Shown in pieces: positions 3,214 to 59,966 of a DNA stretch of 64,000 bases. The notes under the pieces were generated by a model. It ran no database searches. It worked only from the letters and a program-made list of their open reading frames with translations, and was not told where the DNA came from. Position 1 is the stretch's first letter, and each line of letters opens with the position of its first letter. Origin of the DNA: Eledone cirrhosa (taxonomy: Eukaryota); contig OZ024766.1 of assembly GCA_964016885.1 (NCBI GenBank), forward strand, positions 9,052,001 to 9,116,000, given 5' to 3'. Both the position numbers and the translations under genes were made by a program.

Positions 3214-6200
3214 CTGGGGAGTGGAGAGAGAGGTAGGTTACAGTGGTGGTGTGGTGTGGTGTGGTGTGGTGGTGGTGGTGGTGGTGAAGGTGTGATGGTA
3301 GTAGTGGTGGTGTGGTGTGGTGAGATGGGGGGGGTTGCAATGGTGGTGGTGGTGTGGTGCGATGGTGGTGGTTGTGTGATGGTGGTGGTGGTGGTGTGAT
3401 GGTGGTGGTGGTGGTGTGGTGTGGTGCGATGGGGTGGGTTGGTGGTGGTGTGGTGTGGTGCGATGGGGTGGGTGGGGGGTGCAATGGTGGTGGTGGTGTG
3501 GTGCGATGGGGGGGGGGGGGCAATGGTGGTGGTGGTGTGGTGTGATGGTGGGGTGTATGTGATGGTGGGGTGTGTGTGATGATGGGGTGTGCGGTGATGG
3601 TGGTGGTGGTGCGATGGTGGTGGTGGTGTGATGGTGGTGTGATGGTGGGGTGTGTGTGATGGTGGTGGTGGTGGTGATGTGTGTGTGATGGTGGGGTGTG
3701 TGTGATGGTGGTGGTGGTGTGATGGTGATGGTGGTGGTGGTGTGATGGTGATGGTGGTGCGATGGTGGTGGTGGTGCAATGGTGGTGGTGGTGTGATGGA
3801 GGTGGTGTGGTGTAATGGTGGTGGTGGTGGTGTGATGGTGGTGGTGTGATGTGTTGTGAAGGTGTGATGATAGTAGTGGTGGTGTGTAGTAGTGGTGATG
3901 TATCGTGGTGGTGTTGTGTAGTGTGGTGGTAGTGACATAACATGATAGCATACACCAACAACCCACCACACGCCACCCACCACTCTACAGTCACATGGGT
4001 GGGTAAGTGGGTTATATATACTTACTGTGGGCAGTTTTCAGCAGGGGTAACATTGGCAGTTTGGGTAACCTCAGGGTAAATCTTGGGTGTGCCTGACAGA
4101 TAACAACAACAATAGTTGAATAACTCTGGTATATAGTAACACTGTACTGTGTATATATATATATATATATATATATCATCATCATCATCATTTTACGTCC
4201 ACTTTTCCCTGCTTGCAAGGGTGGGACGGGAACTGATTCTGGCTTGATTTCTACAGCTGGATGCCCTTCCTAACACCAACCTCATTTACAGTGAGTGCTG
4301 GGTGCTTTTTTGCCGTGGCACCTCCACGACCACTTTGCAGTGGAATGATAGGGACCCCAGTCCCTGTCATCTCATTTCTACAGCTGAGTAAACTGGAGCA
4401 ATGTGAAATAAAGTGTCTTGCTCAAGGAAACAACACATCACCCGGTCTGAGAATTGAACTCACAACCTTTCGATTGCCAGTCCATTGCTCTAACCACTAA
4501 GCCATGTGCCTCTATCTATATATATATATAAAATCTCTCTCTTTTGTTTATATTATGTAATCTCATGTTCTCAATATTAGGGTATAAATATTGAGTTTTG
4601 TCATAAGTTAATCACTACCTTGATTAAATCTTAACCATCTACTATGTCAGGGTATGTCATGTATCATTTTATTTTATCTGATGAGGACGTACTGTTGAAC
4701 TTAACTCAGTACATCTGAAATATGTATAATAAAATATACTTGATCACAAGAATATCTATTTTGTTAATATTTTGAATTAATATTAATAACTCTGGAAAAC
4801 ATTTACTGTTGAGTGCTTCCAATCTATTGTAAAACTCATTGAACCTTGTTTAACTCTTAAATATATATACATATATATATATATATGTTTACTGAAGCGA
4901 AAACTATTATAAGTTGAGCCAACTTATGCAGCTTCATATGCAAATGAGATTAATCACCTCATTTACACAGACGAGAAAACTCTGAGGGGGAGGATTTGTC
5001 CTGATGATGGCCAGTCAAGCCTGAAATGCATAGACAGTTGTCCCCCCTTGCTTCTGCTGGACAACGCCAGAGGGGATGATAATGATTATGCTGATGATGA
5101 TGCGTCTAGCATCCCTAAACACAAACCTGGGTGTCTTCGGTACTCCAGGGCTTTTGCCCTTAACCTCTCCCTTGCCCCTCGTTCATCAAACGCTTCAGGA
5201 TACACAGGTTTCGGCCCCATATCCTCCTCCAGTAATTCTTTATCCTGCAGAGCCTAGAAATAAACGAACAACAGTAAATGTTTACATTTGAATATATGTG
5301 TGTGTGTATATATCTGTATATATATATATATATATGTCAGGTCAACAGTTGCTGCTACTGGTAACATGTATCCCAGTACAACCTGTCCCATGGTCGGGTC
5401 GTTGGCGACTAAACTGGCAACCCCACCAAGGTTTCTTGGTGAGGAGGGTGACTTTGGACATCCTGCAGAACTAAAAACAAAACCTGTCAAAGGGCAAAGG
5501 AGCTCTTAAGAGTCAATGGCCATCCAAAATCGCCGGGAGAGATGACCCCTTAGCCTTTGTCAAGGCAGAATTCTAGAAGGAAAAGTCTGATATAACACCT
5601 GCAACCCTGATGGTATCCAATGATGTTGACTTGTTCTTCTTTTTGGTAAATATCATCTTGGTTAAGAGAGTGGGACTGGCTTTGTGCAGTGCCTTTGCTC
5701 ACTATAAAAGCTTCACGGCACAGGCATTGCTTTATATCTGGAGATCTCTCTGCACTTGTCGTCACATGGTACCATGGGCCCAGCACTATGTGTCAATAAT
5801 TGTCACAGGTGTAGTGTTCGTACCAGAGTTTTCAAGTCACTGGCTGGACTAAAAAGTCACACTCGTTCAGCGCATCGGTAGGGGTTCTCCTACATGGATA
5901 TAAATTAGTGGCTTTACTCGAAAACGAGTTGGCAGCCACCATATATATATAAATATATCATCATCATCATCGTTTAACGTCTATCTTCCACGCTAGCATG
6001 GGTTTAGATGGAAATTGTCCCACTTGAGGCAAGATTGGTTGTCTCGCTCATCAGAATGAAATTTTATTTAATATGGACCTCCTTATTATATATATAGAGA
6101 GACTTACCTCTTCTTCATCCTCTTCAGTTTCCTCTTCAGAATTTTTCTTCTTTTTCTTCTTTATTCTTACGTTCTTGCGTTTAGTAGCTTCTTTCTGTGG

Positions 6201-59966: not shown

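Follow-up and report, generated by a model that had tools for sequence, protein, structure and literature searches.

Hammerhead motifs at the locus

The window analyzed here is a stretch of 64,000 nucleotides of Eledone cirrhosa (NCBI GenBank assembly GCA_964016885.1, contig OZ024766.1, positions 9,052,001 to 9,116,000 of the forward strand). We are concerned with the motifs shaped like hammerhead ribozymes that it contains, in particular with their loop III (the segment between GAAA and the cleavage site), and with the Penelope-like elements (PLEs) that would carry them. The scan of the window required CTGANGA and, after it, GAAA, a short loop, UH and a stem I that closes the motif; subsequent inspection led to 27 curated motifs between positions 4670 and 58028. 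All are of type I, with the CUGANGA and GAAA...UH core, stems I and II in the corresponding order and a helix III of only 1–2 pairs that is unstable in the monomer (hairpin energies between +2.4 and +6.0 kcal/mol in all 27). Both consensus boxes are found in 22 of them, the deviants being three motifs with U4A, one with A9U and one with A15.1C. Five further CTGANGA boxes (2145-, 6054-, 28700-, 28714+ and 58467+) have no matching GAAA nearby and were excluded from the count; they probably lost it through later insertion or truncation. No hammerhead family appeared among the 150 of 228 Rfam matches listed for the window (E ≤ 1), and the listed matches were set aside as microsatellite and hairpin artefacts.

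The original prediction held that loop III stays self-complementary across different hammerhead families between 4986 and 58021, and that this supports a selected function as well as cleavage, in tandem or in trans, inside the cluster. All eight loops that it named are indeed located between GAAA and UH in hammerhead-shaped motifs. The commonest is TATATA (11 motifs), followed by TATGTA (4), CATATG (3) and TGCGCA (2), while TGCA, CACGTG, CAATTG, TGTGTA, TGTGCA, CATGTG and GAGC occur once each. Nineteen loops are Watson-Crick palindromes and seven close with G-U, so that 26 of the 27 are self-complementary when G-U is allowed. The rule is thus not universal: GAGC, in the overlooked motif 42581+, is not self-complementary. 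The interval given covers the other motifs except 4678+, which is just outside it. As for the families, there are several lineages, but the TATATA, TATGTA and TGCGCA groups are probably one clade and not independent, because they have stem I and tail sequence in common. The CATATG and CAATTG motifs are hammerhead-shaped, but their cores are non-consensus (U4A and A9U), and this is so family-wide.

Many of the motifs are arranged as inverted pairs. Those at 23916..24167 (motifs 23979- and 24105+) have TGCGCA in both arms, a short end at the left, a tailed end at the right and (TA)n on both sides. At 33797..34497 (33855- and 34440+) the loops are TATATA and the spacer contains a 10-bp tandem array; TATATA is also found in both arms at 37178..37431 (37236- and 37374+). 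The pair at 35826..36283 (35873- and 36237+) has TATGTA, and that at 36482..36941 combines TATGTA (36540-) with TATATA (36884+). In the pair at 37631..37862, 37689- carries TGTGTA and 37805+ TGTGCA, each arm with a private stem I mismatch, the family norm being TATGTA. A nested block at 38861..39550 holds 38869+, 39050-, 39208+, 39389- and 39492+, all with TATATA and each with an antisense copy of 98–100% within the block. In the surrounding region, 38700-39700, stretches from the ends of two families occur in duplicate and inverted, which accounts for the presence of five hammerheads in a span of 700 bases.

The remaining motifs are single or tandem. On the plus strand, a single arm at 4670..4736 (motif 4678+) has TATGTA, and a single motif at 4993..5040, with TGCA, is without a compatible same-strand partner in the window. 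Also on the plus strand, 38218..38297 has TATATA with a different stem I and a truncated antisense arm at 38109-38173, 38354..38479 has CACGTG and a 91-nt stem II region and belongs to a young family (1,592 first-look candidates), and 42573..42623 is the GAGC motif 42581+. Three head-to-tail hammerheads with U4A core and CATATG loop occupy 39950..40272 (plus strand); their 138-bp unit is itself a palindrome and stem I has only 2 bp here. Two motifs are on the minus strand: 29596..29680, with CATGTG and GAAC replacing GAAA (A15.1 changed), and 57914..58028, with an A9U core, a long stem II and CAATTG, in which the 5' strand of stem I has been replaced by an adjoining tRNA-like repeat.

The carrier: Penelope-like retroelements

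The pair at 35826..36283 corresponds to the 3' end of a Hydra-type element. At least 40 near-identical copies of its 36237 motif, among 339 candidates, were found on many contigs. Every copy terminates at one of two positions, which are fixed at about 94 and 192 bases past the core start, and passes into (TA)n there; the 5' cut is variable, and in many cases a second, inverted copy of this 3' end is attached. Each insertion is an inverted copy of the element 3' end plus a 5'-truncated sense copy, inserted into (TA)n and with a tail at one end. In the longer copies a piece of GIY-YIG endonuclease (EN) is found about 1.4 kb upstream.

A near-complete copy is present in L111 (L numbers denote other stretches of the genome). 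It has two same-strand hammerheads 3,864 bases apart that flank an open reading frame (ORF), and contains, in order, an inverted partial copy, a truncated repeat with the first hammerhead, broken frames of reverse transcriptase (RT) and EN, the 3' untranslated region (UTR) and the second hammerhead. The order is RT followed by a C-terminal GIY-YIG EN in one ORF, broken by stops and frameshifts. Thus L111 and further loci of the 36237 family have a hammerhead in the terminal repeat of an element with RT and GIY-YIG. The RT has RLRWRAF and KSDKTNN, that is, DKT (not DKG) and RWR instead of RWK, and the linker CxCX5C is found as CNCRNKTDC. The CCHH motif is absent, with a single Cys between VY and YIG, while CxxC and CxH are found around the conserved E and N (CALC before E, and CLH after N in L097). 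EN pieces were also located 0.65–1.5 kb upstream of hammerheads of the TATGTA, TGCGCA, U4A, A9U and GAAG-loop types at other loci, as well as upstream of a second TATGTA subfamily and in 3 loci of the CACGTG family. Searches of an atlas with the RT piece gave look-alikes at 0.94–0.96, some with RVT_1 on 14–48% of members; with the EN piece they gave leads only (0.83–0.84), and a PDB sequence search with the RT piece gave nothing meaningful. A second, different Penelope-like ORF adjoins in L111:884-2806 (-), with RVT_1 at E=1.2e-5 and, within its GIY-YIG core, two cysteines.

The marks of the Hydra clade are described in section 11 of Craig et al. (2021; PMC8557442), whose supplement lists Hydra-1_Obim of Octopus bimaculoides with a (TA)n preference. 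As in the C-terminal EN+ PLEs of that description, the elements found here have the RWK-like motif, DKT, CxCX5C, no CCHH, CxxC and CxH, (TA)n targeting, a hammerhead near the 3' end, an inverted 5'-truncated copy and a tail at one end. They differ from it in their unit of about 3.9 kb with a 1.4-kb 3' UTR (generally under 3 kb in that account), in the tail of about 98 bases (two families here, against 30–40) and in RWR replacing RWK.

Loop III is self-complementary more often than by chance

We sampled the 3.0-Gb genome with 118 stretches of 10 kb at round coordinates (1,179,800 bases), using a descriptor blind to the loop. It recovered 79 motifs, of which 36 had Watson-Crick palindromes, 15 loops closing with G-U, 21 loops that were not self-complementary and 7 loops of odd length. 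The same descriptor found none in reversed sequence, 0–2 per block shuffle (5 shuffles) and 1–2 per decoy core. The extrapolation from 79 motifs in 1.18 Mb is about 200,000 in the genome. The window, with 18 in 64 kb, is about four times denser, which nested insertion into (TA)n explains.

When the loop was masked, the 79 motifs grouped into 17 lineages, 15 of them with majority loops of even length. A lineage in which three loops tied was assigned to the odd ones, and one or two of the singletons could be false matches. Watson-Crick palindromes were found in 7 of the 15 even-length lineages (permutation mean 0.64), and full pairing allowing G-U in 10 (permutation mean 1.37). Of the pairs that would close fewer than 3 bases, and so can only be intermolecular, 22 of 29 were Watson-Crick, against a permutation mean of 7.4. 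None of 100,000 permutations reached these values, under a null that preserves the pooled composition. Restricting the test to the nine lineages present in at least two stretches, palindromes were found in 5 of 7 even loops (p about 1e-5). A pair count on 8 window loops picked by hand (31 of 32 cells paired, 3 pairs changed on both sides) was given no weight, the loops having been chosen with their sequence in view.

The changes within families point in the same direction. DNA decay is strand-symmetric and, because of this, pair-keeping and pair-breaking transitions would be about equally frequent under neutral decay. Starting from TATGTA, found in 4,389 of the 5,606 matches to one family pattern, the pairing survives A to G at positions 2 and 6 of the loop and is broken by T to C at positions 1 and 5. 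We found 65 pair-keeping (total 4,454) against 25 pair-breaking transitions (total 4,414), with a binomial p of 3e-5, or 0.0025 once the counts are halved for paired arms; pair-breaking changes of the loop are thus under-represented. A general sense-strand bias from A to G was considered as the cause and discarded since it is not seen in the flanks, where A>G amounted to 32 in 5,462 sites and T>C to 31 in 5,245, or 13 in 1,769 and 13 in 1,585 in matched contexts (an earlier, overlapping flank set gave 25 in 6,058 and 36 in 6,917). In the CATATG family, a hand count gave full pairing in 72 of 87 copies (CATATG 34, CATGTG 34 and CACGTG 4), and the G-U variant CATGTG was found 34 times against one for its mirror CACATG. 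Two families have switched toward G-U and not toward A-C. The direction of change fits selection among source copies, although an editing bias confined to the source elements may be an alternative cause. Selection for a self-complementary loop III, as originally proposed, is supported both at the lineage level and by the direction of changes.

Where the palindrome fails

The family of motif 42581+ is the largest counted, with 18,511 exact pattern matches and none in the reversed control. A hand count of the first 100 listed gave GAAC 75, GGAC 20, GAGC 3, TAGC 1 and TAAC 1; no palindrome is among them, and the outer G-C pair is retained in 98. In a dimer of GAAC, GGAC or GAGC loops a purine-purine centre would be flanked by four pairs; by nearest-neighbour energies the dimer is still the favoured state, by 11.6 kcal/mol. 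In the genome sample, loops such as CCACTGG and CCTTTGG would allow a monomer helix of three pairs. TGTGCA, which the original prediction listed as a near-palindromic variant, is present but does not represent a family: a single insertion has it, as a private change of one arm, the other arm having TGTGTA.

The variant cores are not restricted to the window either. Among 87 copies of the CATATG family, position 4 is A 77 times, C 6 times, U 3 times and G once. The family conserves a short bulged stem I and a pairing loop III across subfamilies that are only 70–90% alike (window 39950-40272; L200-L206 and L252-L261). We considered that its core might be split by an intron, with CAG as the 3' splice site within the core, and abandoned the idea: upstream of 17 copies, read by eye, no obvious donor that would rebuild the core was found, and position 4 is also C or U. 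In the CAATTG family, position 9 is U in all 15 top matches, which were picked by likeness to the window copy (L177-L191); this family has a 7-bp stem I and a 79-nt stem II region, with 2,088 first-look candidates. Families with a U3-A8 core, a variant that has been described for Schistosoma, were also observed in the sample (L051:6924,7005; L086:6596; L174:555; L040:1198,1518), one of them with the loops CCGG, CCGT, CAGG and CGG.

No support for cleavage within the cluster

The claim that these hammerheads cleave in tandem or in trans within the cluster is not supported. The insertions are separate, 5'-truncated copies of genome-wide families, and members of a pair have no shared transcript because they are on opposite strands. 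Twenty-one of the 27 motifs have an antisense copy nearby: for 17 it is full-length, with 92–100% identity and within the same block, and 4 are partly covered, leaving 6 free. When read-through RNAs were folded, the probability of stem I was at most 0.03 in all 11 folds. Of the six free motifs only 4678 has compatible partners, all of them at least 30 kb away and covered by antisense copies. Dimers between families would also need a matching stem I, and only the AT-rich clade offers it. Cleavage within the cluster is not supported by this arrangement, as far as sequence and predicted folds can tell. The signal of selection comes down from the source retroelements and is uninformative on function at this locus.

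Probable double-hammerhead pairing in the source elements

Dimeric cleavage through a palindromic loop III, which the original prediction drew on as known, matches the double-hammerhead mechanism as published. For six motifs the double-hammerhead fold gained between 11.6 and 19.9 kcal/mol (nearest-neighbour energies). With a monomer helix III of 1–2 pairs being unstable, two copies would pair, and in the double fold both helix III and stem I would form between them. The partners could be two repeats of one transcript of the type pLTR-ORF-pLTR (pLTR, pseudo-long terminal repeat), the type expected from L111, or else two separate RNAs from the same family. By analogy with published families, the dimer would cleave slowly, possibly helped by the protein of the element. 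Cervera and de la Peña (2014; PMC4209133) describe no monomer activity and low dimer activity of minimal hammerheads, and the account of Frangieh et al. (2024; PMC11167929) includes protein-assisted cleavage, as well as insertion in vitro for which cleavage was unnecessary. Dimer-dependent cleavage of these motifs in their source elements is thus likely, as a prediction from those systems. The copies in the window would be mostly inert passengers, each being paired with its antisense arm in any read-through RNA.

We also considered whether the truncation points could be a fossil trace of cleavage, and dropped the idea: in a set biased by the fetching queries, only 1 of 129 was within 3 bases of the cut site and 38 were within 40. 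This scarcity is consistent with insertion not requiring cleavage. In the 31 two-armed insertions that could be classified, 30 had one tailed and one untailed 3' end (L001-L030, L092-L110, L222-L251 and the window pairs); the tail has about 98 bases, and each of the two ends falls where AT-rich sequence matches the (TA)n target. As to whether one or two templates are used, 29 pairs out of 37 were comparable: in 18 of them the two arms resembled each other more than they did other copies, in 7 less, and 4 were ties.

Weighing the alternatives

It is highly probable in our view that the motifs are hammerheads in 3' terminal repeats of PLEs of the Hydra clade, present here as separate 5'-truncated insertions in (TA)n, with a loop III likely selected in the source elements for double-hammerhead pairing. 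Several points weigh against this. The Pfam match to GIY-YIG, in L107, is below threshold (E=0.0014), the RT piece of the 36237 family has no Pfam match, and the assignment to the Hydra clade rests on protein motifs, without a tree. The flank background for the 65:25 ratio is small (13 + 13 context-matched events), with an approximate Fisher p of only 0.035, and the arms of one insertion are not independent in that test. A perfect palindrome is not needed for spread, because the largest family (18,511) is without it and 7 of the 79 sample motifs have odd-length loops of monomer type. The folding contrast is weak, since stem I formed in only 1 of 6 motifs folded without the antisense arm. And there are mutually sequence-compatible motifs of the AT clade, 8 on the plus and 5 on the minus strand, for which cross-dimers are possible by sequence.

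These compatible stems I and loops III are also what could make the cluster a working unit, in which a read-through RNA with several same-strand hammerheads of the AT clade would pair and cut itself; the density of the window, about four times that of the sample, and the three head-to-tail copies at 39950-40272 could be read in the same way. We find this very improbable. Nested insertion into (TA)n accounts for the density, the three head-to-tail copies combine a U4A core with a stem I of 2 bp, and copies 29672, 37689, 37805 and 58020 show private decay. To this must be added the antisense cover of 17 motifs fully and 4 partly, the near absence of stem I in the 11 read-through folds, and the lone uncovered motif with partners, 4678, whose distant partners are themselves covered. 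Nor do we see more than a slight chance that the palindromes arose mostly as a by-product, without selection, of alternating purine-pyrimidine, AT-rich sequence together with a bias from A to G by RNA editing or RT error. TATATA makes up 11 of the 27 window loops in a genome full of (TA)n, and all wobble changes seen at the family level (TATGTA, CATGTG and CGATTG) amount to A to G when read on the sense strand, but palindromes containing G and C recur in unrelated lineages (CTAG, TGCA, CG, CACGTG, CAATTG, CCATGG, TGATCA and CGATCG), the permutation null keeps the pooled composition and the flanks show no sense-strand excess of A>G.

A different role of the pairing has to be considered too. The palindromic loop III could be an RNA dimerisation signal, the double fold clasping two templates in a twofold complex with a dimeric RT-endonuclease that primes both target strands at two RT start sites, giving a two-armed, one-tailed insertion; catalysis could then lapse while pairing stays selected. 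We regard this proposal as quite unlikely, and the stronger version in which the double-hammerhead pairing is mainly a structural clasp joining two templates for two-ended insertion, with cleavage secondary, as very improbable. In their favour are the U4A (77/87) and A9U (15/15 top matches) families that keep pairing loops, the single truncation point of 129 within 3 bases of the cut, the combination of a tailed with an untailed end in 30 of 31 insertions and, in PMC11167929, catalytic mutants without effect on insertion in vitro and a predicted protein dimer. However, GAAC-loop and odd-loop families also form inverted pairs, and Naiads form inverted insertions without canonical hammerheads. 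Moreover most lineages keep a complete catalytic core, for which a clasp would have no use, and a U4C viroid variant functions in vivo, so that the variant cores may cut. Selection in the source elements for double-hammerhead pairing therefore remains our preferred reading.

Other features of the window

Three tRNA-like heads, at 58028-58085, 1402-1459 and 4447-4504, score at about the Rfam gathering threshold and are probably short interspersed elements (SINEs); the one at 58028 adjoins the A9U hammerhead. Tandem tracts at 51223-56751, 9109-11977, 46923-49173 and 60030-62345 consist of a 5.5-kb (TGG)n and minisatellites of 122, 48 and 29 bases. Candidate coding exons with acceptor and donor sites were observed at 17917-17770 and 20418-20276, both on the minus strand. 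Should the cluster lie inside a host gene, its inverted pairs would form long hairpins within introns, which would be likely editing substrates.

Relation to known hammerhead systems

Palindromy of loop III across families and dimeric cleavage are already in print (Perreault et al., 2011; Cervera and de la Peña, 2014), so the original observation repeats a known feature of Penelope-type hammerheads and changes little. According to the legend of Fig. S8 in Perreault et al. (PMC3088659), dimeric pairing is allowed by the vast majority of loop III sequences in several ribozymes; this is the same observation, made in other animals (Aedes and Nematostella are named) and in passages that contain no within-family test of direction. 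The pLTR hammerheads of PMC4209133 are alike in being of type I with a short or absent helix III and a recurrent palindromic 15.2-16.2 plus loop 3; in the extra base between 9 and 10.1, the long helix II and the many consensus families per genome; and in the opposite-strand pairs 100–700 bp apart, the tandem pairs about 3 kb apart around the RT ORF and the U3-A8 variant. The palindromic feature is restated in two reviews. Compared with what that paper describes, helix II here reaches 79–91 nt, G10.1-C11.1 is often replaced, and there are family-wide U4A and A9U cores and the very large family with a purine-purine centre.

The PAc Poseidon element of Anolis (PMC11167929) shares with the elements studied here two RT start sites that define the tail, AT-rich targets and, seemingly, insertion from uncleaved RNA; it belongs to another clade, and the protein assistance shown for its hammerhead would be a prediction for ours. 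Metazoan non-LTR retrozymes, as described (PMC7229834; 10.64898/2026.07.22.740005), also have type I hammerheads in repeats, with dimer-dependent cleavage in the axolotl, but they are head-to-tail arrays of 220–350-bp units, while here we find inverted truncated ends of coding elements, the sole tandem being a local triplication of a palindrome. No head-to-tail array of short non-coding units with intact hammerheads was found in the window, because the pairs are inverted and the only three-unit tandem combines U4A cores with a stem I of 2 bp, its family having EN upstream elsewhere.

Our literature search found no report of loop III as a dimerisation signal for insertion, nor of family-wide U4A or A9U cores, although Lunse 2017, Arkhipova 2017 or supplements may cover them. 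The 2017 work of Lunse, Weinberg and Breaker is said to deal with PLE-associated hammerhead variants that have a diminished stem III and dimer-dependent cleavage, and may already report core variants. In any case the U4A and A9U families, the purine-purine family and the rule of one tail per two-armed insertion bear on the role that the hammerhead plays in these elements, given that insertion seemingly proceeds from uncut RNA, and the genome of E. cirrhosa offers natural material in which that role can be tested.

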